Shown here: one piece after another, positions 8,814 through 41,514 of the stretch
Layout: each line of letters opens with the position of its first letter
How positions within the stretch are numbered: the stretch's first letter is position 1
NCBI GenBank assembly: GCA_050744085.1
Contig: JBOGGU010000139.1
Span: 34,809 to 98,808, forward strand
Reading direction: 5' to 3'
Origin: Acidimicrobiales bacterium
Lineage (GTDB): Bacteria; Actinomycetota; Acidimicrobiia; Acidimicrobiales; JAJPHD01
DNA length: 64,000 bases
Translations under genes and position numbers: made by a program
The notes under the pieces: model-generated
Databases searched by the model: none
The model's input: only the letters and a program-made list of their open reading frames with translations
What the model was told of the DNA's origin: nothing

Positions 8814-9829
<1,016 letters not shown>

Positions 9830-31489: not shown

Positions 31490-32062
31490 TCAGGCAGGGC
31501 CTAGGAGCACATCGACGTTCAGGGCCACCCCCGGAAGGGTCTCGACCACCAGGGTGTCGCTCCGCCGGGCACGGCGGGTCGTTGCGTAGCCGTCGGGTCG
31601 AGGGTCAGCGAACACCCGGACCTCCATGGCGGTTACATCCACCACCCAAAGCTGTGGCACCCCGGCCCTGGCGTAGCGGGGAGCTTTGTAGTTGACGTCC
31701 CAGTTGAGGGTGGAGTCCGCCACCTCGATGATCAGGAACACGTCGCTGGCCATCGCTATGTGGCCGTCGGGCGAATCCAGGCCGTGCTTCACCAGCGCCA
31801 AGTCCGGCTCAGGCTCGGAGTAGTCGTCCAGCTGGACCGGGCACTGCACCGAGACCAGTGCTCGGTCCCCCACCGCGTTGACGAGCAGGTGGTTGAGGCG
31901 TAGAACACAGGCATAGTGCGGATGCCCCATGGCGGCCATCTGGAAGACCTCCCCGTCGAGCAGCTCGACGTGCGAATCGCCCTGGAAGAGCCCGGCCTCG
32001 GCCATGCGGCGCCACTCCTCGACACTGAACGCGTGACGGGCGGGAGCCTGCTCGAGAACCAC
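31490..32062 (-). CDS. Uma2 (DUF820) family endonuclease-like protein
   Basis: 190 aa. VELLDGEV, EPDLALV, LIIEVADST...D...K...YARAGVPQLWVVD. Confidence 0.8.
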   Translation of the reverse strand: MVLEQAPARHAFSVEEWRRMAEAGLFQGDSHVELLDGEVFQMAAMGHPHYACVLRLNHLLVNAVGDRALVSVQCPVQLDDYSEPEPDLALVKHGLDSPDGHIAMASDVFLIIEVADSTLNWDVNYKAPRYARAGVPQLWVVDVTAMEVRVFADPRPDGYATTRRARRSDTLVVETLPGVALNVDVLLGPA

Positions 32063-32214: not shown

Positions 32215-33744
32215 CTACTCGGAGGATATGGAATGTCGATAGAAAGCATCACTCGAAACCGGACTCTTCGTCTCGTGTCCCTCATCGTTGCCAGCGTGGC
32301 CATCTTGGCGGCTGTTATCTTTGGAAGCGTCCCCGTCACCGGTGCCCAGACGCCCAGTGGTGCGGGAGCCCCGGCGGCGGTCCTGACCGTGCACGGCTGA
32401 CCCGGCTCGGCGCAGGTCGCCGATCCCGAACGCCAGCAGGGCGAGCACTGCGAGTCGGAGCTGAACGCTGCCTTCGAGCATGTGGCGTGTCACCTCCTGG
32501 CCTTCGGCCTGCCAGGCGATCAGCATCGCCAGCAGCCCGATGAGGGCAAGGGCGCCGGGAACCTGCCACTCCCGTGATCGCCACAGGCCTCTGCGGCGGG
32601 CCAGTGCGAGGCAGAGGGCCAGGGCGGCCATGGCCGTGGTGGCCCACCAGCGGTACAGGGAGGTGGTCAGCACTGGGGTCGTTGGCGAGCCTGATGCTGC
32701 GTAGAAGCCGAGGTCCCCGTTGGCGTAGTTGAACGCCTCCTGGGGGGACTGGAATGGAGCGCTCACCAAGAACACTGGGTGGGTGAGCAACCAGAGCGCG
32801 TAGGTGGTGGTGGCGTGGCCGGCGTCGATCCAGGCGAAGAGGGGGGCGGTGGCGGCGGTGTCGGTCGGGGCGACGACCGGAGCCGCACCGGGAGGCGTCT
32901 TCGTGCGGGCCGCCAGGGCCTCCACCAGGCCCACGTCGGGCATGCCATGGGCGGCGAAGAAGGCGTCCCGGGCCGGGTAGGGAAAGACCCGGACGTAGAG
33001 GTCGTCGAGGGTGTAGGTGCCGTCCCTTCCGGCCGCAGCGGCGAGGCCCTCGGCGAGGATGGCGACGGTGAGCAGGGCGGCTCCCAGGGCCTGGAGCCGG
33101 CGGGGTGAACGTCGGCGGGAAACGACCCCAGCCACAACGAGCAGGCCGACAGCGACAATGCCGACGGTGACCGTGTTGGAGTCGCGCGAGAAGGCCATAC
33201 CGATGGCCGACACCACGACAGCGCCGAACCAGGCTCGGCCCGGCTTGCTCGCAAAGCCGACGAGGGTGGCGACAAAGAGTGCCACGAATGCCAGAGTGGT
33301 CGTCTCGGACAGGATCGAGCGGTCCCACTGGGTGACGTACTGGCTGGAAGCCAAGGCTAGCACCAGGGCCGTGGCCAGGACCTGCGCCCAGGCCTGTCGC
33401 ACCCTGGTGGCGATCACCCCCGCCGTCGTGGACCACGCGATCACGGCGATCACCGTTTGAGCCAGGACGAAGCTCGTCTGAGTGCCGGTTAGCTTCCACA
33501 GCAGCGGCACCAAGGGCGGGAAGTGGCCAGCCCAGAACCCGCCGCTGAGGATCGACATCGTGCCCACCGACTCGTAGAACTTGGTGTCCTGCCAGATCAG
33601 GGCTGGCCCGGCGAGCGCCTCCCAGATCCGGTAAGCGGCAAAGGCGCCCATGAAGGCGCCCATGACGACCCAGCAGTATCTCGTCGTGCCCGAGGCGCCA
33701 GGCGAGCGGGTCGCCGCCACTCGCGGCAGTGTCGTGCTGGCCAT
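32215..33744 (-). CDS. Polytopic membrane protein, GT-C-like (putative glycosyl/arabinosyl-transferase-like); function uncertain
   Basis: About 11 hydrophobic spans plus a large loop near the C-terminal third. The start is taken at MASTTLPRV (33744). The hydrophilic C-terminal ~60 aa overlap an AT-richer region and a convergent small ORF. Confidence 0.55.
   Translation of the reverse strand: MASTTLPRVAATRSPGASGTTRYCWVVMGAFMGAFAAYRIWEALAGPALIWQDTKFYESVGTMSILSGGFWAGHFPPLVPLLWKLTGTQTSFVLAQTVIAVIAWSTTAGVIATRVRQAWAQVLATALVLALASSQYVTQWDRSILSETTTLAFVALFVATLVGFASKPGRAWFGAVVVSAIGMAFSRDSNTVTVGIVAVGLLVVAGVVSRRRSPRRLQALGAALLTVAILAEGLAAAAGRDGTYTLDDLYVRVFPYPARDAFFAAHGMPDVGLVEALAARTKTPPGAAPVVAPTDTAATAPLFAWIDAGHATTTYALWLLTHPVFLVSAPFQSPQEAFNYANGDLGFYAASGSPTTPVLTTSLYRWWATTAMAALALCLALARRRGLWRSREWQVPGALALIGLLAMLIAWQAEGQEVTRHMLEGSVQLRLAVLALLAFGIGDLRRAGSAVHGQDRRRGSRTTGRLGTGDGDASKDNSRQDGHAGNDEGHETKSPVSSDAFYRHSISSE
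32233..32400 (+). CDS. Possible small signal-peptide/TM protein (55 aa)
   Basis: ggaggatatggaATG gives an RBS-like context. RNRTLRLVSLIVASVAILAAVIFGSVPVTGA has an n-h-c signal shape. Third-position GC is only modest by my count, and the ORF overlaps the tail of the convergent membrane-protein ORF. Confidence 0.25.
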   Translation: MSIESITRNRTLRLVSLIVASVAILAAVIFGSVPVTGAQTPSGAGAPAAVLTVHG

Positions 33745-33771
33745 CTCAGTGGGCAGCCTACGCTCAGGGCT

Positions 33772-33960
33772 ATGTCGATACCCGATCACGCTCCGTGTGA
33801 CCCGGCCAAGCTGTTGGCTGCCTGGATCGAGTGGGAGCGGGGTGAGACCCCACCCGGCCGGGTGATGAGCAACCTCAAGACCGGCGGGCTGCGCGATGTG
33901 CTGGAGCATCTGGCCGCCACCGGCTGGGTGATGCCCAGGGAGACAACCGCGGCCCCCTGA
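33772..33960 (+). CDS. Hypothetical small protein (62 aa)
   Basis: The ATG lies 27 nt from the divergent membrane-protein start. I recognise no family. Confidence 0.3.
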   Translation: MSIPDHAPCDPAKLLAAWIEWERGETPPGRVMSNLKTGGLRDVLEHLAATGWVMPRETTAAP

Positions 33961-34670: not shown

Positions 34671-34781
34671 CTAGTGCTGCGCCGCGAAAGAGCCACGTGT
34701 GTCGCCCAAGGCATCAATCCTGTTCAGAGCAGCCAAGACTCGATAAGCGACACACGTGGCTTTTCCGCTCAGCAGCACTAG
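34671..34781. repeat. 111-bp inverted repeat (35-nt arms, 30/35 complementary, 41-nt spacer) in the divergent promoter region
   Basis: The left arm is ctagtgctgcgccgcgaaagagccacgtgtgtcgc. The reverse complement of the right arm is ctagtgctgctgagcggaaaagccacgtgtgtcgc. The outer 10 nt and inner 15 nt are perfect. Confidence 0.85.
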
Positions 34782-34804
34782 TAGTGTCACACCCCCGGGG
34801 CATA

Positions 34805-35734
34805 ATGGAGGCCGTGTCCTTGCTCGAAGAGCTCAGGGGAGCTGGGCTGGAGCGGCCAGCCACCGACGTGGGGCTTGCGGGCCGCATCCGGGATCAGCTC
34901 GAGGCTGCGGCGGCAGGAGTACCCGCGGGGGTCACGGTGAGGGTCACCAAGCGCCGCCTGCATCAGGTCCTGTTGTGTGAGGCTCACCTGGTTGCGTTGC
35001 TGACAGCGGCCCCCCCGCCTTCCCCGGAGCAGGTTGCCGGCCAGCTCCTCGACTGGTTGTTCGGCCTGGTAGCCACGGGCCAGCCGGTCGGGACGGACCT
35101 GGTGGCGGATGCGCTCGGGGCTGGGGCAGCGTCCGGCGAGTCGGATCTGGCCCGAGACTGGGACTCGCTGTCAGTCGAGGCCCAAGGGGAGGCCCGGATG
35201 ATCGTCGCGGCGTGCTGGCCAGCGCTGGTCGCATGGCCGCAGCTGCCTCCGAGCGCTCTGGTGCGGCTGCAGGAGCCGATTGTTGCCGAGCTGGCTGGTG
35301 GCCGGGTGGTGCTGGCGGGCCGGGCGGACCTGGTGCTCGGCCAACCTGGCGCCGGGAGGGCCGGGTCCAGGCTCATCGACCTCAAGAGCGGCAGGCACCG
35401 CCAGGAGGACGTGGCGGAGGCCGGCTGGTACGCCGTCCTGGAGACGCTGCGACATCGTGCCGCCCCGCTCCAGGTGGGGACCTACTACCTACGCGACGGC
35501 TTCCTGGCCTTGGACGTGGTCACCGCCGAGCTGCTGGAGCAGGCGAGCGGGAGGATCGCCGAGGGCGTTCGTCGCCTGGTGGCGCTGGCTGGCGGCGCGG
35601 AGGCCGAGGCAAACCCGAATCCATTATGCCCCTGGTGCCCGAAGATCGATTCATGTGAGCCGGGCAGGCGGCTCGCCTCCGAGAGGGGCACCTACGTACC
35701 CAGGATGAACCTGGAGGCCAGCGATGAGCTTTGA
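34805..35734 (+). CDS. Cas4/AddB-type PD-(D/E)xK nuclease with a 4-Cys (Fe-S) cluster signature
   Basis: N-terminal Cys (HQVLLCEAH), GRADLVL, SRLIDLKSG (D/E-x-K), GWYAVLE, and C-terminal CPWCPKIDSC (C-x2-C-x5-C). Confidence 0.7.
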   Translation: MEAVSLLEELRGAGLERPATDVGLAGRIRDQLEAAAAGVPAGVTVRVTKRRLHQVLLCEAHLVALLTAAPPPSPEQVAGQLLDWLFGLVATGQPVGTDLVADALGAGAASGESDLARDWDSLSVEAQGEARMIVAACWPALVAWPQLPPSALVRLQEPIVAELAGGRVVLAGRADLVLGQPGAGRAGSRLIDLKSGRHRQEDVAEAGWYAVLETLRHRAAPLQVGTYYLRDGFLALDVVTAELLEQASGRIAEGVRRLVALAGGAEAEANPNPLCPWCPKIDSCEPGRRLASERGTYVPRMNLEASDEL

Positions 35735-36707
35735 GCTGCCAGCCCACCAAGAGGCGGTTCGGGCCGCGGTCCAGGACGGTCTGGCGGGGGAGCCCCCGCT
35801 GTCGGGCGCCGAGCTGGGTGCCCTGCGGGTGGAACTGGTGGAAGGTCTCCGCCCCTTCGCGTCGACACCGCTTCTCGTGGACAGTTACCGGCTGTCGAGA
35901 GTGGCCGCCTGTCCAGCCAGCTACGTGGCAGGTCCCTTCGAGTGGACCGCCCGAGTCGCCCAGCGCTCCCTCGGCCTGCGAGCCCTTCGAGCGATGACAT
36001 CTGATGCCAGGCTCGGCGTGCTCGACGCTGCGGGGGGGGCGATCGACGAGGCGATCGGAGACGACTACTCGGTGGGGAGGTGGCTGGGGGACCAGGACGG
36101 GCCTGCCAGGGGAGCGACCGTGGCGGCCGTGGCCACTTGGGCTTCGCGGTCCTGGGTGGCCGTACCCTGGGGTCGGATCGGGACGGTGAGCCCGACGAGC
36201 GCGGCGTTCAAGTTCCGGCCATTCGGGCGGGGCGGCCAGGTTGCCCTCGAGGCCAGGCCCGATGCAGTCGTCCAGCCAGGTGGGGGACGGCGGGACGACC
36301 CTCGTCAGGTGCTCCTGGGACTGCGGCCAGCGTCCCGGGTCGCCATCGGCTTGGAGGCCCTGGTGTTTGCTCTCGTTCGCAGTGCGGCGCCGATGAGGGT
36401 AGTGACGGTGCAGCCGTCGATTGGCCTGGTGGGGTCAGTGGAGGTAGACGAGGCCCTGCTTAGAGCGGCCGTCGAGGGCGTCGTTGCCGCAGCGCCTGTC
36501 CTCGCTGCCGCCCCTGGGGAGGCGGTGCGGCTCGAGGAGGTGCCCGGCCCCCAGTGCTGGCGCTGCTTCCGGCGCCACCAGTGCCCCACCGGAGGTTTCT
36601 GGCTGGGACACCAGCCCCGTCGGATAGGGGGGATACCCACCGGGGAGCAAGGCACGGTGGCCCGGATCGCCAGGATCAGCGCGGACAACATTGCGAGCAG
36701 CGGATGA
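35724..36707 (+). CDS. Degenerate Cas4-like paralog (Cys cluster kept, catalytic motif eroded)
   Basis: The ATG lies 11 nt before the stop of the previous gene. RVAACPAS, LEARPDAVV, VLLGLRP (in place of D/E-x-K) and C-terminal CWRCFRRHQC. Confidence 0.5.
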   Translation: MSFELPAHQEAVRAAVQDGLAGEPPLSGAELGALRVELVEGLRPFASTPLLVDSYRLSRVAACPASYVAGPFEWTARVAQRSLGLRALRAMTSDARLGVLDAAGGAIDEAIGDDYSVGRWLGDQDGPARGATVAAVATWASRSWVAVPWGRIGTVSPTSAAFKFRPFGRGGQVALEARPDAVVQPGGGRRDDPRQVLLGLRPASRVAIGLEALVFALVRSAAPMRVVTVQPSIGLVGSVEVDEALLRAAVEGVVAAAPVLAAAPGEAVRLEEVPGPQCWRCFRRHQCPTGGFWLGHQPRRIGGIPTGEQGTVARIARISADNIASSG

Positions 36708-37825
36708 CTATCGCGGAGGAGCGAGCTGACTGCAAGTTCCGGTCCATTGCCAGCGCCTTGCGCCAGCGGGGGGAGGCGTTGGCTCTCGTGGACAGCGGCG
36801 TGAACAGCCGCGTGGACAGCGAGGAGCCCAACCGTTGGCGCACGGCGTCCCGGCTTTGCCGCCGCTACGTCGGGGTCAGCCTGGATGAGCTTTACGACAC
36901 GCGCGTCGAGCGGACCCCCTACGGGTCATGCCTGCACCTGGTCGACCGGGTGGCGCCGTTCGAGCTGGGGCTCGCCGGCCCGGACCTGGCGGAGGACACG
37001 ATCCTTTCTGAGCTGAGGCTGGTGTTCGGCGTGGGACCGGTTACCGCCGAGGCGATGCGTGTTGCTGGGGTGAGACGAGTCTCCGAGCTGGTGGGGCATC
37101 GTCGTTTCGGGGGTTCGGCGGCCTGGCTGGTGCAGTGCTGGGAGCGCCAGGACCTGGTGTCTCTGCACGACCACATTCGCCAGCGATTGGGCGGCGCAGG
37201 GCACGGGCTGGGGTTGCTCCTGGCCGGGCTGGTTCCTCCCGAGCGTGTCGTGGTGGTGGACCTCGAGACACTCGGGCTGTGGGGGGCGCCGATCGTCCTG
37301 TTCGGCTTCGCCCGCGTGGAGCGGGGTTGCCTGGAGATACACCAGTACCTGGCCAGGGCAGGCAGCGAGGAGCCCGCGGCTCTGTGGCTGGCACTGAAGG
37401 TGCTGGGAGGATGCGACGTGATGGTCACCTACAACGGCCGTAGCGCAGACTCGCCGTGGATGCGCCAGAGGCTGGCTTACTTTGGGTTCGGGAGGGCGTC
37501 GACCCCCGTGCACCTGGATCTGCTTCATCCGGTGCGCCGGCGTTACCGGGGTGGCGCAGGGTCAGGTGACCCCGCAACCGGAGGCTCGGGACCGGCCGCT
37601 TCGCTCCTCGACTGCCGGCTGGCAACCGTGGAGTCCAACTTGTTGGGGATCGAGCGCTCGGTGGATGACCTGCCGGGCGACGCCGTGCCGCACTTCTACA
37701 GGGAGTACGAGCGGCGGCAGAACGTCGGGCCCCTTATCCCGATCATCGACCACAACCGAGCCGACCTCGTCGCGGTAGGTCGCCTGCTGAGCCACCTCGG
37801 AAGCGATGCCGCCGCCCGCTGGTAG
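36704..37825 (+). CDS. YprB/MrfB-like RNase-H-fold (DEDD-type) exonuclease with an HhH motif
   Basis: ATGA overlap with the previous gene. VVVVDLETLGL, MVTYNGRSADSPWM and IIDHNRADL. An HhH-like LVFGVGPVTAEAM lies upstream of the exonuclease core. Confidence 0.7.
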   Translation: MTIAEERADCKFRSIASALRQRGEALALVDSGVNSRVDSEEPNRWRTASRLCRRYVGVSLDELYDTRVERTPYGSCLHLVDRVAPFELGLAGPDLAEDTILSELRLVFGVGPVTAEAMRVAGVRRVSELVGHRRFGGSAAWLVQCWERQDLVSLHDHIRQRLGGAGHGLGLLLAGLVPPERVVVVDLETLGLWGAPIVLFGFARVERGCLEIHQYLARAGSEEPAALWLALKVLGGCDVMVTYNGRSADSPWMRQRLAYFGFGRASTPVHLDLLHPVRRRYRGGAGSGDPATGGSGPAASLLDCRLATVESNLLGIERSVDDLPGDAVPHFYREYERRQNVGPLIPIIDHNRADLVAVGRLLSHLGSDAAARW

Positions 37826-40136
37826 CCCCGCAGCCGGCTCCGCCGAGGCCGCCCAGCCCGCTGGTAGCCCCAGCCCGCCCCCTGGCGCCCCGACCGCCGG
37901 GCTCGTCGAGGGGCTCCGCAAGCTCGACTCCTACAGAGGCCAGATCACCCACGTCGAGCACATTGCATCCCGACCGGCTCGCGAGGCAACGCTGTCGACC
38001 CCGCTGCCCGAGCCTCTGGGCTCCTATCTGGCCCAGCGGGACCTCCGGCTCTGGTCGCACCAGGTCGCCACGATCGAGGCGGTCCGGGGAGGCGACGACG
38101 TCATCCTCACGACTGCGACAGCCTCAGGCAAGACCCTGGCCTTCAACCTGGCTGTCCTCGAAAGGCTCCACACCGACCCCCAGGCCACAGCTCTGTACCT
38201 CTACCCGATGAAGGCCCTGGCCAACGACCAGCTGGGGACGCTCAGCGACATCGAGGCCGCGACCGGGATCCGCATCGGAGCTGCGGTGTACGACGGCGAC
38301 ACCCCCAAAGGCCGTCGGAGCCGCATACGGGCTGCTTCGAGGCTGGTCGTCACCAACCCGTTCGGGCTCCACGAGTACCTGCCCAGCCACCACCTCTGGG
38401 AGCGCTTCCTGTCCAAGCTGGCGCTGGTGGTGGTCGACGAGGCCCACTGGTACCGAGGCGTGCTCGGATCGAACGTCGCCTTGGTGCTCCGCCGACTCCG
38501 CCGGGTTGCCTCCCATTACGGAGCCGCGCCGTCCTTCGTGCTGGCGTCAGGCACCATAGCCAACCCCGCCGAGCACGCCGCCAACCTCGTTGGTCGTCCC
38601 CATCTCGTGGTCGACACAGACGGTGCGCCCCAGGGCCCGAAGGACTTCGTGGTCTGGGACTCGGCGGTTAACCCTGCTCGTTCGCCGCACCTGCAGGTGG
38701 CCGACCTCCTGGCCCACTTTGCCACCACGGGTCACCAGGCGATCTGCTTCACCGTGTCCAGGCGGATGGCAGAGCTGGTGGCCCGGTGGGCTGCGCAAGC
38801 GGCCCCAGGTCGTCGGATCGCTGCTTACAGGGCGGGATACCTCCCAGGGGATCGGCGCCAGATTGAGGCCGAGCTGCGCAGTCGAGCACTCGACGCGGTG
38901 GCCGCCACCAGCGCTCTCGAGCTGGGCATCGACGTCGGCGAGCTCGATGCGGTGGTGATGGCTGGCTACCCAGGGAGCATCTGCTCCACCTGGCAGCAGG
39001 CCGGGCGGGCCGGGAGGTCCCTGGCGCCCTCGATAGCCGTCCTGGCGGCGTTCGAGGACCCTCTGGACCAGTACCTCGTGAGCCACCCAGAGGAGCTTTT
39101 CGCCCGACCCCACGAGAACGCAGTTGTGGACCTGGCCAATCCCCACATCCTCGCGGGGCACCTCACCTGCGCAGCGGCGGAGCTCCCCCTGCGGGACACC
39201 GACGAGGAGTATTTCGGCCCGCAGCTGGCGCCACTGGTGGCCAGCCTCACCGGGGAGGGCGTGCTTGCCCCGACTCCGATGGGTCACGCCTTTCATGGCA
39301 CCTTCCGGCCGGCCGGGGTTGTGCGCCTCAACGCCGTCGACGAGCACCCTGTGGAGGTGCGATGCGGGGACGAGGTGCTGGAGGTCATATCCGGTCCCCG
39401 GGCGCTGGCCTCGGCCCACCGAGGCGCGATCCTGCTGCATCGAGGCGCCAGCTGGAGGATCGAGTCCCTTGACCCTGAGGCGGGCGTCGCCAGAGCCGTC
39501 GCCGAAGAGACCGAGAGCTATACCGAGACCCTTACCCATACCACCGTTGAGGTGCTGGGCGAGCGGCGCCAGCGTCCGCTCGGAGGGGCAACCTTGTGCC
39601 TCGGCGAGCTGCGGATCTCCCAGCAGTCCTACGCCTACAGGCTCAAGTCAGGGGAGCAGGTGCTGGGGACCTTCCCGCTGGAGCTTGCGCCAGCGGAGAT
39701 GGACACCGTGGGCGCGTGGCTGGCGTTGCCCCCTGAGCTGGCCAGCGGGGTTCGCGCAGGTGCCTACGCCGGCGGCCTCCACGCGGGGGAGCACGCCCTC
39801 ATTCACATGATGCCGCTCCTTGCGATGTGCGACCGCCGAGACGTGGGCGGTTTGTCGAGCGCCCACCACGCCGGGGTGGGCGCCGCCGCCATCTTCGTCT
39901 ACGACGGCTACAAAGGAGGGGTGGGCATCGCCGAGAAGGCATTCGAGCGCTTCGAGCACCTGGCGGAGGTCACATTGGGGCTATTGGAGGGCTGTCGATG
40001 CGAGAGCGGCTGTCCGTCCTGCGTCTACGACCGCAACTGCGGTAGCGACAACCAGCCCATGGACCGCTTGGCGGCTGCAACGATCCTGCGAGGGGTGCTC
40101 CGCCGTCCTGGCAGCCATGCCGGAGCTCGGCGCTAG
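37806..40136 (+). CDS. MrfA/YprA/SftH-like DEAH-box helicase with a C-terminal DUF1998 (4-Cys zinc) domain
   Basis: TATASGKT (motif I), VVVDEAHWYRG (motif II), SGT (motif III), WQQAGRAGR (motif VI), and C-terminal GCRCESGCPSCVYDRNCGSDNQ. The ATG lies 20 nt before the previous stop. Confidence 0.9.
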   Translation: MPPPAGSPAAGSAEAAQPAGSPSPPPGAPTAGLVEGLRKLDSYRGQITHVEHIASRPAREATLSTPLPEPLGSYLAQRDLRLWSHQVATIEAVRGGDDVILTTATASGKTLAFNLAVLERLHTDPQATALYLYPMKALANDQLGTLSDIEAATGIRIGAAVYDGDTPKGRRSRIRAASRLVVTNPFGLHEYLPSHHLWERFLSKLALVVVDEAHWYRGVLGSNVALVLRRLRRVASHYGAAPSFVLASGTIANPAEHAANLVGRPHLVVDTDGAPQGPKDFVVWDSAVNPARSPHLQVADLLAHFATTGHQAICFTVSRRMAELVARWAAQAAPGRRIAAYRAGYLPGDRRQIEAELRSRALDAVAATSALELGIDVGELDAVVMAGYPGSICSTWQQAGRAGRSLAPSIAVLAAFEDPLDQYLVSHPEELFARPHENAVVDLANPHILAGHLTCAAAELPLRDTDEEYFGPQLAPLVASLTGEGVLAPTPMGHAFHGTFRPAGVVRLNAVDEHPVEVRCGDEVLEVISGPRALASAHRGAILLHRGASWRIESLDPEAGVARAVAEETESYTETLTHTTVEVLGERRQRPLGGATLCLGELRISQQSYAYRLKSGEQVLGTFPLELAPAEMDTVGAWLALPPELASGVRAGAYAGGLHAGEHALIHMMPLLAMCDRRDVGGLSSAHHAGVGAAAIFVYDGYKGGVGIAEKAFERFEHLAEVTLGLLEGCRCESGCPSCVYDRNCGSDNQPMDRLAAATILRGVLRRPGSHAGARR

Positions 40137-40142
40137 CTGGAC

Positions 40143-40185
40143 CTGGTCGTGTTTGTGTACCTATCGCGACCACAAACACGACCAG
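40143..40185. terminator. Perfect 15-bp hairpin between the convergent helicase and ndh genes
   Basis: ctggtcgtgtttgtg-13 nt-cacaaacacgaccag. Confidence 0.7.
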
Positions 40186-40203: not shown

Positions 40204-41514
40204 TCACTCGCCGACTATGACCCTGGTGCCGCGGCTCCAGGACATGTAGCGCCATGCCCAGTTGAGCAGCACCGAGACCCTGTTGCGGAACCCGACCAGC
40301 GTGACCAGGTGCAGCGCCAGCCACGCCAGCCACGCAGGCGTCCCACGAAGCCGGATACGACCGGGGAGCTGGGCCACCGCCGCCCGGCGGCCAATCGTGG
40401 CCATGGTCCCCTTGTCGTGGTACCTGAAATCCTCGGTGGGCATGCCCTCCACCAGCCGGCGGATCTGGATCCCGGAGTGGCGACCCTGCTGGATCGCGGG
40501 CTGGGCCAACTGAGGCAGCAGGGAGCCGTCGTGTCCGGCAACCCCTGCCATGTCGCCGATGGCGAACACGTTGGCCTGGCCGGCTACCCGCAAGTCGGCG
40601 CCCACCGCTATCCGCCCACCGCGAACCTGTTCCAGCGGAAGGGTTGAGGCCAGGGTGCCCGAGCCAACCCCTGCCGCCCACACCACCAGCCCGCAGGAGA
40701 TAGCCTCGCCCGAGGCCAGGGTTACCTTGTCAGGGTCGATCGAGGCGACTGCCTCCGACAGCCGGACCTCGACACCCAGGCGCCTCAGCACCTTGGAGGC
40801 ATAGCTGCCCAGGCGGGGATGGAACGCCCCCAGCAACCGGTCGCCTTGCTCCACTAGCACCACCCTGGCCTGACGGGGCGCCAGGTCAGGGTACGCAGTG
40901 CCAAGCTCCATGGAGAACAGCTCGGCCAGCGTGCCGGACATCTCGATGCCTGTCGGCCCGCCGCCCACGACCACCACGGTCAGCCCACGCGCCGGGTTGG
41001 CGTCTCCCGCCGGGTCACCTCCAGCCAACGCGGCGGCGGCCGCCTGCTCCAGCTGGTCGAAGATCTGGGCCCTCACCGCCAGGGCGTCCTCCATGGTGTA
41101 GATGGCCCGGCTGTGCTCGACCGCACCAGGGATGCCGAAGTGGTTGGTGGCCGCGCCCGCAGCCAGGACCAGGTAGTCGTAACCGAGGGTGCCGCCGTCC
41201 TCGAAGCGCACCAGGCGCGCGTCGAAGTCCACTCCACACACCATCCCCCGGCGGAAGTCGGTGGCCGGATGGTGCCTGACGTAGGCCCGAACCGGATAGG
41301 CGATGTCGCCCGGGTTCAGGCCGGCGGTTGCCACCTGGTACAGCAGCGGCTGGAACGTATTGAAGTGGTGCTTGTCCACCAGCGTCACGCTCACCGCAGC
41401 CCTGGCCAGCTCGCTGGCCACGGCCAGCCCTCCGAAGCCGGCACCGACGACGACCACCCTCCGCCCCAAAGCCTCAGGGGGCTGCAGAGGTAGTACCGAT
41501 GAGACGCCCGTCAC
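40204..41514 (-). CDS. ndh: Type II NADH:quinone oxidoreductase
   Basis: Two dinucleotide folds (VVVVGAGFGGL and VVVVGGGPTGIE) and a C-terminal membrane-anchor helix. Confidence 0.88.
   Translation of the reverse strand: MTGVSSVLPLQPPEALGRRVVVVGAGFGGLAVASELARAAVSVTLVDKHHFNTFQPLLYQVATAGLNPGDIAYPVRAYVRHHPATDFRRGMVCGVDFDARLVRFEDGGTLGYDYLVLAAGAATNHFGIPGAVEHSRAIYTMEDALAVRAQIFDQLEQAAAAALAGGDPAGDANPARGLTVVVVGGGPTGIEMSGTLAELFSMELGTAYPDLAPRQARVVLVEQGDRLLGAFHPRLGSYASKVLRRLGVEVRLSEAVASIDPDKVTLASGEAISCGLVVWAAGVGSGTLASTLPLEQVRGGRIAVGADLRVAGQANVFAIGDMAGVAGHDGSLLPQLAQPAIQQGRHSGIQIRRLVEGMPTEDFRYHDKGTMATIGRRAAVAQLPGRIRLRGTPAWLAWLALHLVTLVGFRNRVSVLLNWAWRYMSWSRGTRVIVGE

Follow-up and report, generated by a model that had tools for sequence, protein, structure and literature searches.

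A candidate DNA-damage-responsive repair operon of Acidimicrobiales that joins an MrfAB-type helicase-exonuclease set with a Cas4-like nuclease pair

A cluster of four overlapping open reading frames (ORFs), designated ORF1 to ORF4, was analysed in a stretch of 64,000 nucleotides (nt) of DNA of an Acidimicrobiales bacterium (GCA_050744085.1, contig JBOGGU010000139.1, positions 34,809-98,808). This whole stretch is referred to below as the window, and coordinates are those of the window unless the number of a related locus (L001, L004, etc.) precedes them. The G+C content of the window is about 69%, and the close protein relatives of its genes are labelled as Acidimicrobiales metagenome-assembled genomes (MAGs). 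It seems that the cluster is a DNA-damage-responsive repair operon joining two modules into a helicase and two-nuclease machine, a variant of the MrfAB repair pair; we put the probability of this reading at roughly 0.55. ORF1 and ORF2 make up the first module, a Cas4-like nuclease and its degenerate paralog, and ORF3 and ORF4 make up the second, an MrfB-like exonuclease and an MrfA-type helicase. These four identities had been proposed in an original prediction made from the sequence, and the searches in Pfam, the profile matches to PDB entries and the Foldseek comparisons uphold them.

The ORF4 protein contains the domains DEAD (PF00270, 2e-27), Helicase_C (PF00271, 2e-13), WHD_HRQ1 (PF22982, 4e-12) and MZB/DUF1998 (PF09369, 5.9e-23); it ends with MZB and carries no fused nuclease. 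Its translation includes the motifs TASGKT (Walker A), DEAH and QQAGRAGR, as well as CRCESGCPSC..C of a four-cysteine zinc-binding domain. As revealed by a profile comparison, it is similar over its full length to YprA/MrfA of Bacillus subtilis (PDB 6ZNP, E=1.3e-130), with residues 51-741 aligned to residues 25-731. On TIGR03817, the model of the SftH-type DEAH helicases of the "helicase/secretion neighbourhood", ORF4 scores 697.6 bits, below the curated cutoff of 874.1; judging by this score, it is related to that family but is not its equivalog. The scores on the defence helicase profiles of PADLOC do not exceed 134 bits, the best being that of DruE (134 bits, 1e-39), while BrxH and SngC also match. 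On the basis of its sequence, ORF4 is assigned to the MrfA/YprA family of helicases, and 3'-5' activity and a role in the repair of mitomycin-C damage are predicted for it.

The ORF3 protein matches RNase_H_2 (PF13482, 5.8e-23), and its residues 182-366 match the exonuclease core of MrfB (PDB 8UN9, 3.9e-9). The DEDDh residues D186, E188, D249, H350 and D354 are invariant across the orthologs, and the motifs DLET, YNGRSAD and DHNRAD are found in the translation. The core (approximately 182-366) ends near residue 366 of 373, and the search in Pfam gave no TPR domain in ORF3, unlike MrfB of B. subtilis, where a TPR domain is located at the C-terminus (PMC11194089). In front of the core, ORF3 has a region of about 180 amino acids (aa). 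The helix-hairpin-helix (HhH) assigned to ORF3 in the original prediction is visible there as the motif FGVGPVTAEAM, but no significant Pfam profile stands behind it, the best being DNA_pol_lambd_f (Pol-lambda fingers/HhH) with E=0.15. A metagenome scan with the ORF3 alignment returned no loci.

ORF3 adjoins ORF4 with the exonuclease first, the reverse of the order in yprAB. In B. subtilis, MrfAB operates as a two-gene unit in which MrfA translocates in the 3'-5' direction and MrfB removes the 3' strand (PMC11194089). The census of YprA helicases by Bell et al. (2025) describes their repair branch as "YprA only or with MrfB", and the pairing of ORF3 with ORF4 therefore fits the variant with MrfB. 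This second module appears to be of the repair type, because ORF4 matches YprA over its full length, because its score on TIGR03817 (697.6 bits) far exceeds that on DruE (134 bits), and because an intact MrfB-type exonuclease adjoins it.

The ORF1 protein matches PDDEXK_1 (PF12705, 5.6e-8). With the residues counted from ATG 34805, its catalytic set comprises D175, D192-x-K194, Y209 and E213, of which D175, K194, Y209 and E213 are invariant in an alignment of 12 sequences; in the same alignment the cysteines C58, C275, C278 and C284, spaced as C...CxxCx5C, are invariant as well. The motifs LLCEAH, GRADLVL, IDLKSG, WYAVLE and CPWCPKIDSC are all present in the translation, as are those of ORF3 and ORF4 quoted above, in agreement with the original prediction. 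The AlphaFold2 model of ORF1 (pLDDT 84) gave the following top Foldseek matches: ACE1 (6.8e-7), AdnAB (6e-6), Dna2 (2e-5), RecE, AddB (3.5e-4) and Cas4 (3.7e-4). In PADLOC, ORF1 matches DruK (2e-8). It is predicted that ORF1 is an active nuclease of the Cas4/AddB/Dna2 type with a putative [4Fe-4S] cluster.

No family was found for ORF2 in Pfam, NCBIfam, PADLOC or PHROG, and no PHROG family was found for ORF1. Comparison of ORF2 with the ORF1 family by hhalign gave a probability of 98.1% and E=6.7e-14 over 271 columns, which confirms that ORF2 is a paralog of ORF1, as had been suggested. The cysteines C63, C278, C281 and C287 are kept in ORF2, as is one aspartate (RPDAV). In the profile alignment, IDLKSG of ORF1 lies opposite LLGL--RP of ORF2 and WYAVLE lies opposite LEALVF; the (D/E)xK motif and the Y/E pair are gone. 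The C-terminal GGIP is invariant among seven close homologs (alignment A1). The AlphaFold2 model of ORF2 is of moderate quality (pLDDT 67) and matches ACE1 (7e-4), followed by Dna2, RecE and Cas4. Both proteins thus model as the PD-(D/E)xK/Fe-S fold, which the original prediction had anticipated, and ORF2 is predicted to be an inactive full-length paralog of ORF1 that retains the cluster cysteines. Both are stand-alone proteins of 306-327 aa with a long N-terminal helical region.

Upstream of ORF1 lies a conserved promoter (Table 1). The distance between its element and the -10 hexamer is 10 nt, too close for the element to act as a -35. The alignment of the upstream regions gave the pattern TGTCRCAS-N8-CATAMT-N6-7-start in the window, L001 and L004, while L010 has AGTCACAG instead; L079 also carries the conserved promoter. 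One occurrence of the pattern was found in the window, where chance would give 0.02. In the generalised form G(T/A)CACA(C/G)CC-N6-CATnnT-N6-7-(G/A)TG the promoter precedes almost all ORF1-like genes. It was found at 39 unique loci, with no variation in the G, in the ACA or in the A and T of the -10 hexamer, while the C of GTC is kept at 34 of them. All 40 matches of the motif on both strands of approximately 835 kb of fetched DNA are situated upstream of ORF1-like genes. A sigma-70 promoter scan of the region gave no match, as is to be expected for a promoter that has no -35 element.

Promoters of this architecture are known from the control of genotoxic stress. The binding motif of PafBC, tGTCgg(N10)tA(N3)T, is a -26 element that functions with no -35 (PMC8635444), an earlier form of the motif being tTGTCRgtg-8nt-TAnnnT (PMC5656591), and SiwR, another activator of the WYL type, likewise works from -26 during genotoxic stress (PMC10693628). 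The spacing of the promoter is identical to that of the PafBC motif, whose consensus is mycobacterial. The promoter of the cluster resembles the PafBC and SiwR promoters in its element centred on GTC near -26, in the spacing of exactly 10 nt from the 6-mer to the -10, in a -10 that reads xAnnnT and in the lack of a -35; unlike them, it has G(T/A)CACA(C/G)CC rather than tGTCgg. The strong conservation and the exact spacing suggest a WYL/PafBC-like damage promoter. In L001 and L002, a gene for a 236-aa protein with WYL and WCX domains is located about 340 bp past ORF4 on the opposite strand (L001:14823-15536 and L002:13101-13814, minus strand); no counterpart of it was present in the window or in the other loci fetched by then.

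The position of the promoter bears on the start of ORF1. A start codon 6-7 nt after the -10 hexamer implies a leaderless mRNA, and it is probable from the sequence that ORF1 is translated from such an mRNA at GTG 34814. This start appears more likely than ATG 34805, because the latter overlaps the -10 hexamer and because the start lies 6-7 nt past the hexamer in the 39 related promoters.

The ORF listing and the sequences of the junctions bear out the four plus-strand ORFs, with the overlapping stops and starts that had been described for them; together they span 34814-40136. The stop codon of ORF1 (35732-35734) and the ATG of ORF2 (35724) give an overlap of 11 nt, and a GGAGG sequence precedes this ATG by 7 nt. 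The stop of ORF2 and the start of ORF3 share an ATGA (36704-36707), and ORF3, with its stop at 37823-37825, overlaps ORF4, which starts with ATG 37806, by 20 nt. The sigma-70 promoter scan gave no promoter-like sites inside the four-gene cluster.

Table 1. Features of the four-gene cluster and its borders in the window
Feature	Position	Strand	Description
Upstream inverted repeat	34671-34781		Arms 34671-34705 / 34747-34781, 35 nt each, 41-nt spacer, 86% complementary, 111 bp
Promoter	34786-34806	+	-26-type element GTCACACC (34786-34793), 7 nt, -10 hexamer CATAAT (34801-34806); no -35
ORF1	34814-35734	+	Cas4/AddB/Dna2-type PD-(D/E)xK nuclease, 4-Cys Fe-S signature; predicted active
ORF2	35724-36707	+	Full-length ORF1 paralog; predicted catalytically dead
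ORF3	36704-37825	+	MrfB/YprB-type DEDDh 3'-5' exonuclease
ORF4	37806-40136	+	MrfA/YprA-family SF2 DEAH helicase
Downstream hairpin	40143-40185		Perfect 15-bp stem (40143-40157 / 40171-40185), 13-nt loop

Both of the inverted repeats that flank the cluster are real. The upstream repeat separates the ORF1 promoter from the divergent MOSC gene. It occurs nowhere else in the window and, as single-stranded DNA, folds with a free energy of -34.5 kcal/mol (z=-6.5). The downstream hairpin (-33.3 kcal/mol, z=-4.2) sits between ORF4 and the convergent NDH-2 gene (40204-41514, minus strand). A T tract is missing, and the T-tract terminator scan did not call the hairpin; it is probably a T-tract-less terminator for both ORF4 and the NDH-2 gene. 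The two repeats had been taken to bracket a self-contained transcription unit. Their presence stands, but the upstream repeat precedes the promoter and does not mark a transcript boundary. GACACAC, which is present in both of its arms, is a form that the -26 element takes in other lineages. In L001, an unrelated repeat with a 15-bp stem is found in the same position (approximately 8845-8895), with a canonical tGTCgg beside it. The upstream repeats could be extra sites for the regulator, or insulators between the divergent promoters of MOSC and ORF1.

The four-gene set was found again, with its order unchanged, in L001 and L002 (two Acidimicrobiales MAGs), in L004 (a JGI metagenome) and in L079, and in L010 the genes ORF1 to ORF3 are present up to the end of the contig. 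At least five Acidimicrobiales lineages have the four-gene order and shared neighbours. The conservation elsewhere that could be expected of a true module is thus present, but not across Actinomycetota: the four-gene form was not found outside a narrow clade of Acidimicrobiales in the data searched. A genome scan with the seven-sequence alignment A1 of ORF2, run with a single peptide pattern, returned two loci, which under-samples the distribution over GTDB species. The identity to the proteins of the window is 55-69% for ORF1, 46-58% for ORF2, 63-68% for ORF3 and 66-75% for ORF4, and ORF2 evolves faster than the other three genes. In all lineages that bear the cluster, down to 46% identity of ORF2, the genes keep their order and ORF2 and ORF3 still overlap in an ATGA. 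ORF3 and ORF4 are separated by a gap instead of overlapping in L004 (76 nt) and L079 (23 nt). Three proteins of L001 contain repetitive sequence: GEDHR/GQDHR pentapeptide repeats at the N-terminus of ORF3 (L001:10927-12159), an (AGxGL/V)n insertion between nuclease motifs II and III of ORF1 (L001:8944-10011), and a low-complexity APTYLA/PTDPA repeat in ORF4.

The upstream neighbours of the cluster are the genes of UDG, tsaE/B/D, rimI, groES-groEL, a gene of 60-63 aa and MOSC, the last being absent in L004; the short contig of L079 shows only MOSC on this side. Downstream, the genes of NDH-2 and IMPDH follow in L001, L004, L079 and the window. All neighbours with a Pfam match between 25.2 and 45 kb of the window are housekeeping or metabolic, and the 563-aa ORF at 32215-33909 has no Pfam match. 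No cas domains were found by Pfam in this part of the window or in the related loci, and no Argonaute genes were found near the cluster of the window or at the related loci. The setting of the cluster is a vertically inherited housekeeping neighbourhood and not a defence island. The original prediction had asked whether homologous loci lie in defence islands or beside repair genes; the neighbours here include the UDG, tsaD, groES/EL, MOSC, NDH-2 and IMPDH genes.

The first module has a much wider distribution than the operon. An exhaustive profile search with ORF2 over 1.84 billion proteins gave 517 representative clusters at E<=1e-3, including 36 at E<=1e-30, where word-indexed protein searches had given 7, 19 and 12 relatives; the exhaustive search thus shows a larger family. 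The tail of this search consists of ORF1-like active proteins and a class of ORF2-like proteins that lack the cysteines, and none of the ten clusters inspected had a functional name. A metagenome scan with the ORF1 alignment gave 54 loci, in which six-frame ORFs were scored with hidden Markov models of the four proteins. An ORF2-like gene follows the ORF1-like gene in 32 of the 36 non-redundant loci with enough downstream sequence. Homologs of ORF3 and ORF4 were found in three of the 23 loci with at least 4.5 kb downstream, only in the clade of the window, and no ORF3- or ORF4-like genes (E<=1e-5) were found within the fetched flanks (up to 8 kb) of the loci that have the pair only. These comparisons indicate that ORF1 and ORF2 form an older, separate two-gene module, which is mostly stand-alone. 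Since the pair stands alone in most loci and ORF3 and ORF4 accompany it only in the clade of the window, the operon appears to be a lineage-specific merger of two modules.

The pair is a conserved feature of uncultured bacteria with a high G+C content; its named relatives are MAGs of Acidimicrobiales and Acidimicrobiia. In a second large lineage the pair lies between a copper amine oxidase gene and a group of patatin, NUDIX and phoB-pst genes. In this lineage the ORF2-like partner of L008 (L008:3605-4501) has none of the Fe-S cysteines, and the ORF2-like genes of L032 (L032:8777-9844) and of most loci from L022 to L064 score like that of L008 on the ORF2 profile (about 95-130 bits). Cysteine-less ORF2-like representatives are also frequent in the profile search, and the inactive subunit may have degenerated further in this lineage. 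Another variant of the pair, in L013 (7292-10969) and L014 (7039-10716), has a 495-aa gene between the ORF1-like and the ORF2-like gene, with a weak match to the GHKL family (HATPase_c_3, E=1.9e-4), and is set among many LRV/HEAT-repeat genes. Searches of ORF1 and ORF2 by tblastn against 72,556 plasmids gave no match. The relatives on viral contigs are generic Cas4-like fragments with 23-30% identity and were judged irrelevant. Longer proteins with an ORF1-like domain at the C-terminus (P0064, P0110 and P0131) gave no match in Pfam. In L016 the pair is followed by a 929-aa gene; suspected to encode a helicase, it actually encodes a GT87/PIG-U-like membrane protein.

In three loci (L005:3380-6505, L012:7811-10948 and L015:3224-6361) the pair takes another form, in which a gene with an XRE helix-turn-helix is followed by a fusion of an M78 ImmA/IrrE peptidase (HELGHH) with an ORF1-like domain and then by an ORF2-like gene. 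The catalytic residues of the fused ORF1-like domains are intact. A tyrosine integrase, a TrwC relaxase and methyltransferases are encoded nearby in L005 and L012, to which L012 adds PLD-like and MazE-like genes; the contig of L015 stops directly after the pair. ImmA/IrrE-type proteases (COG2856, Peptidase_M78) are known as damage-triggered switches, and the arrangement with the XRE gene and the peptidase fusion looks like an induction switch that senses DNA damage or DNA ends. The likeness to ImmA/IrrE and XRE switches concerns these relatives only; unlike them, the operon of the window has no peptidase or XRE gene. A four-gene ubiquitin-like conjugation operon diverges from the XRE gene in the same loci (L005:367-3204, L012:4794-7631 and L015:206-3040, minus strand); it comprises DUF2604, a Y4jH-like (multi-ubiquitin) gene, a 160-aa gene and a Prok-E2_C/ThiF fusion. 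Bacterial ubiquitin-like conjugation operons have recently been linked to antiviral defence.

Among the known systems, the cluster is closest to MrfA/MrfB of B. subtilis, with which it shares the full-length YprA match and domain architecture of ORF4, the DEDDh core of ORF3 and the adjacency of the two genes. It differs in having the exonuclease first, in the lack of TPR in ORF3 and its different N-terminal region of about 180 aa, in the two extra Cas4-like genes that are co-transcribed, and in the promoter of the -26-element type. AddAB, AdnAB and RecBCD are similar in combining a DNA motor with nuclease domains of the RecB/Cas4 type, including a 4-Cys Fe-S nuclease in AddB, and the nuclease domains of AdnAB and AddB are structural matches of the ORF1 model. 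Degenerate copies of an otherwise active domain are also known from AddAB and RecBCD, where they are inactive. In the cluster, however, the nucleases are separate small proteins and not fused to an SF1 UvrD-like motor, the motor is an SF2 helicase of the YprA type, a DEDDh 3'-5' exonuclease is added, and the inactive module is a nuclease and not a helicase.

The fold and the C...CxxCx5C pattern relate ORF1 and ORF2 to Cas4, to the Argonaute-associated ACE1, which is the best structural match of both, to the nuclease domain of Dna2 and to EXO5/MGME1. Unlike the stand-alone nucleases of the Cas4 family, they have no cas or Argonaute genes nearby and possess the long N-terminal helical region. 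ORF1 is Cas4-like but is not a CRISPR-associated Cas4. To our knowledge, a fixed pair of an active and an inactive gene is not a described feature of Cas4-family nucleases. In TM0106/TIGR03491, Cas4-like and RNase_H_2 domains are fused in one protein. It had been suggested that the Cas4-like function of the cluster was split off from a fusion of this type and duplicated in place. This suggestion is not borne out: ORF1 and ORF3 are separate genes with no NCBIfam match at E<=0.01, TIGR03491 included, and the nuclease pair is older and stand-alone. The literature search yielded no relevant paper on YprB together with Cas4 or on TM0106.

A precedent for a helicase acting with a 5'-processing nuclease is provided by yeast Hrq1 (RecQ4 family) and Pso2/SNM1, and ORF4 carries the Hrq1 winged helix (PF22982). 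In the repair of interstrand crosslinks, the nuclease Pso2 is stimulated by Hrq1, the relative of MrfA in eukaryotes (PMC12918939). Pso2 is a metallo-beta-lactamase nuclease and not a PD-(D/E)xK enzyme, and the analogy is one of function only. DISARM, Druantia, Dpd and ARMADA differ from the cluster by their partner genes, which are absent here: DrmB, DrmC and a methyltransferase in DISARM, DruA-D/H in Druantia, Dpd biosynthesis genes in the Dpd system, and BrxHII with PglX in ARMADA (Bell et al. 2025). In Druantia and ARMADA, a nuclease is fused to the C-terminus of the YprA-like helicase (Bell et al. 2025). PADLOC gave partial matches of single genes only, and the main text of the census by Bell et al. 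(2025) mentions no Cas4 or RecB partners of YprA helicases, in line with the original claim that the four-gene set is not a named system. The cluster appears to be an MrfAB-type repair set with an added, unnamed Fe-S nuclease pair, and no named system matches it.

As regards complex formation, the roles on the two strands, damage induction and the substrate, we infer the following scheme. The four genes would be expressed on one leaderless mRNA from the -26/-10 promoter lacking a -35, the architecture used by the WYL activators of genotoxic stress (PafBC, SiwR), and their translation would be coupled. The MrfA-like ORF4 would load at damaged or nicked DNA and unwind it in the 3'-5' direction, while the MrfB-like ORF3 would trim the 3' strand. 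The nucleases Cas4, AddB and Dna2 are enzymes of single-stranded DNA ends or flaps. ORF1 and ORF2 most likely form a heterodimer, with ORF1 as the nuclease of the 5' strand and ORF2 as a dead partner retaining the cluster, and this nuclease would cut or resect the displaced 5' strand or flap. The outcome would be the excision of bulky adducts or crosslinks, or the processing of ends, in a manner similar to AddAB/AdnAB or Hrq1-Pso2.

Several observations weigh against this reading. The operon is confined to a few MAG lineages, and the coupling of the two modules could be recent and incidental. In comparison with the mycobacterial consensus, the promoter has the invariant ACA in place of "gg", the T of GTC is an A at 12 of the 39 sites, and the -10 opens with C and not T. 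The window contains no pafBC or other WYL gene, and in the approximately 835 kb of fetched DNA the motif was found before no genes other than the ORF1-like ones. The composition of helicase and nucleases is also typical of defence systems, as the single-gene matches in PADLOC (DruK, 2e-8; DruE, BrxH and SngC) illustrate, and the setting of the pair on mobile elements, with methyltransferases, a PLD-like gene and ubiquitin-like conjugation, is compatible with conflict functions.

Another explanation is that the two modules only share a transcript. ORF1 and ORF2 would then have a task of their own, as in the loci that lack a helicase, ORF3 and ORF4 would be an ordinary MrfB-MrfA pair, and a rearrangement would have brought the two together in this clade, coupled neither physically nor in mechanism. 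The numbers from the pair-only loci given above (32 of 36 loci with the pair, three of 23 with ORF3 and ORF4, and no ORF3- or ORF4-like gene in flanks of up to 8 kb) are in keeping with it, as are the self-sufficiency of MrfAB as a two-gene unit in B. subtilis and the gaps of 76 nt and 23 nt that replace the ORF3/ORF4 overlap in L004 and L079. Yet gene order and the ORF2/ORF3 junction at ATGA do not vary among the cluster-bearing lineages, a single conserved promoter in front of ORF1 serves all four genes with no promoter-like site found inside, and in ORF3 the TPR scaffold of MrfB is replaced by another N-terminal domain, which could be an adaptor. We regard this explanation as doubtful. Anti-phage or anti-plasmid immunity is less probable still. 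Here the helicase would sense foreign DNA or translocate on it and the nucleases would degrade it, the cluster being a distant analogue of Druantia, DISARM or ARMADA, and an immunity module had been among the original proposals. The PADLOC matches of ORF4 (DruE 1e-39, BrxH, SngC) and of ORF1 (DruK 2e-8), the relatives of the pair on integrative elements with methyltransferases, a PLD-like gene and the ubiquitin-like conjugation operon, and the presence of a Uma2-family gene near the cluster agree with such a function; besides, the pairing of an active and an inactive nuclease is common among defence helicases (Bell et al. 2025). But ORF4 is far nearer to MrfA (1.3e-130) and TIGR03817 (697.6 bits) than to the defence profiles (<=134 bits), and its pairing with MrfB is the signature of the repair branch. 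PADLOC and the Pfam search of the neighbours gave no methyltransferase and no DrmB/C, DruA-D/H, BrxHII or PglX partner. The housekeeping neighbours are constant over 46-75% protein identity, and the distribution is not patchy or island-like; the searches gave no plasmid matches and no PHROG families for ORF1 and ORF2. Repair is favoured over defence because of the housekeeping synteny, the scores of ORF4 on the repair models and the promoter architecture of the DNA-damage type.

A sensing role is the least probable of the alternatives and seems very unlikely. It would make ORF1 and ORF2 mainly a sensor of DNA ends or single-stranded DNA that recruits or licenses the MrfB-MrfA set at broken or foreign DNA. 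The XRE repressor, the fusion of the M78 peptidase (HELGHH) with an ORF1-like domain and the ORF2-like gene in the three integrative-element loci are what would be expected of a sensor, but no member of the family, the fusions included, departs from the catalytic residues of ORF1, which points to nuclease chemistry, and the cluster of the window has no peptidase or XRE gene. A wider view of the pair is put forward tentatively, as a possibility with a better claim than these alternatives but well short of the repair operon: ORF1 and ORF2 may represent an unrecognised family of damage-inducible Fe-S nuclease heterodimers, with one active and one dead subunit, that is widespread in uncultured high-GC bacteria and stands under a WYL/PafBC-like promoter. 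In the operon the pair would serve as the long-sought extra nuclease of MrfAB, and the four proteins would make up a machine of helicase, 5'-nuclease and 3'-exonuclease, an SF2-driven counterpart of AddAB/AdnAB or Hrq1-Pso2 with separate subunits. Fused to ImmA/IrrE, the pair would be a damage sensor that sets off the induction of mobile elements.

Two further genes were noted in the vicinity of the cluster. The gene at 33772-33960 (plus strand) encodes a 62-aa protein (MSIPDHAPCDPAKLLAAWIEWERGETPPGRVMSNLKTGGLRD...) that is highly conserved in L004 and L001 in the same position and belongs to no family; its promoter is of the leaderless type, with TACGCT or TAGGCT, 7 nt and ATG. The Uma2-family gene (31490-32062, minus strand), which encodes a putative restriction endonuclease-like protein (PF05685, 2.9e-29), is located 2.7 kb before the operon. 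In L001, a Uma2 gene is found downstream of the cluster instead of upstream.

The identities of the genes are unsurprising and the four-gene form is narrow; the new leads are the stand-alone pair, the -26-element promoter and the ImmA/IrrE fusions. The host organisms are uncultured, and we infer the significance outlined here. MrfAB is a recently defined excision pathway independent of UvrABC, and the authors of the MrfB study state that its further factors are still unknown (PMC11194089). The operon offers a candidate for the missing strand-processing activity. Within the ORF1-ORF2 pair, ORF2 has no family name; the profile search gave 36 representative clusters at E<=1e-30 among 1.84 billion proteins. 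The promoter is among the cleanest conserved -26-element promoters outside mycobacteria; it would extend the control by "sigma adaptation" to Acidimicrobiia, and its motif may offer an easy way to trace the damage regulon of uncultured actinobacteria. The ImmA/IrrE fusions suggest that the same nuclease fold can serve as a damage sensor on mobile elements.

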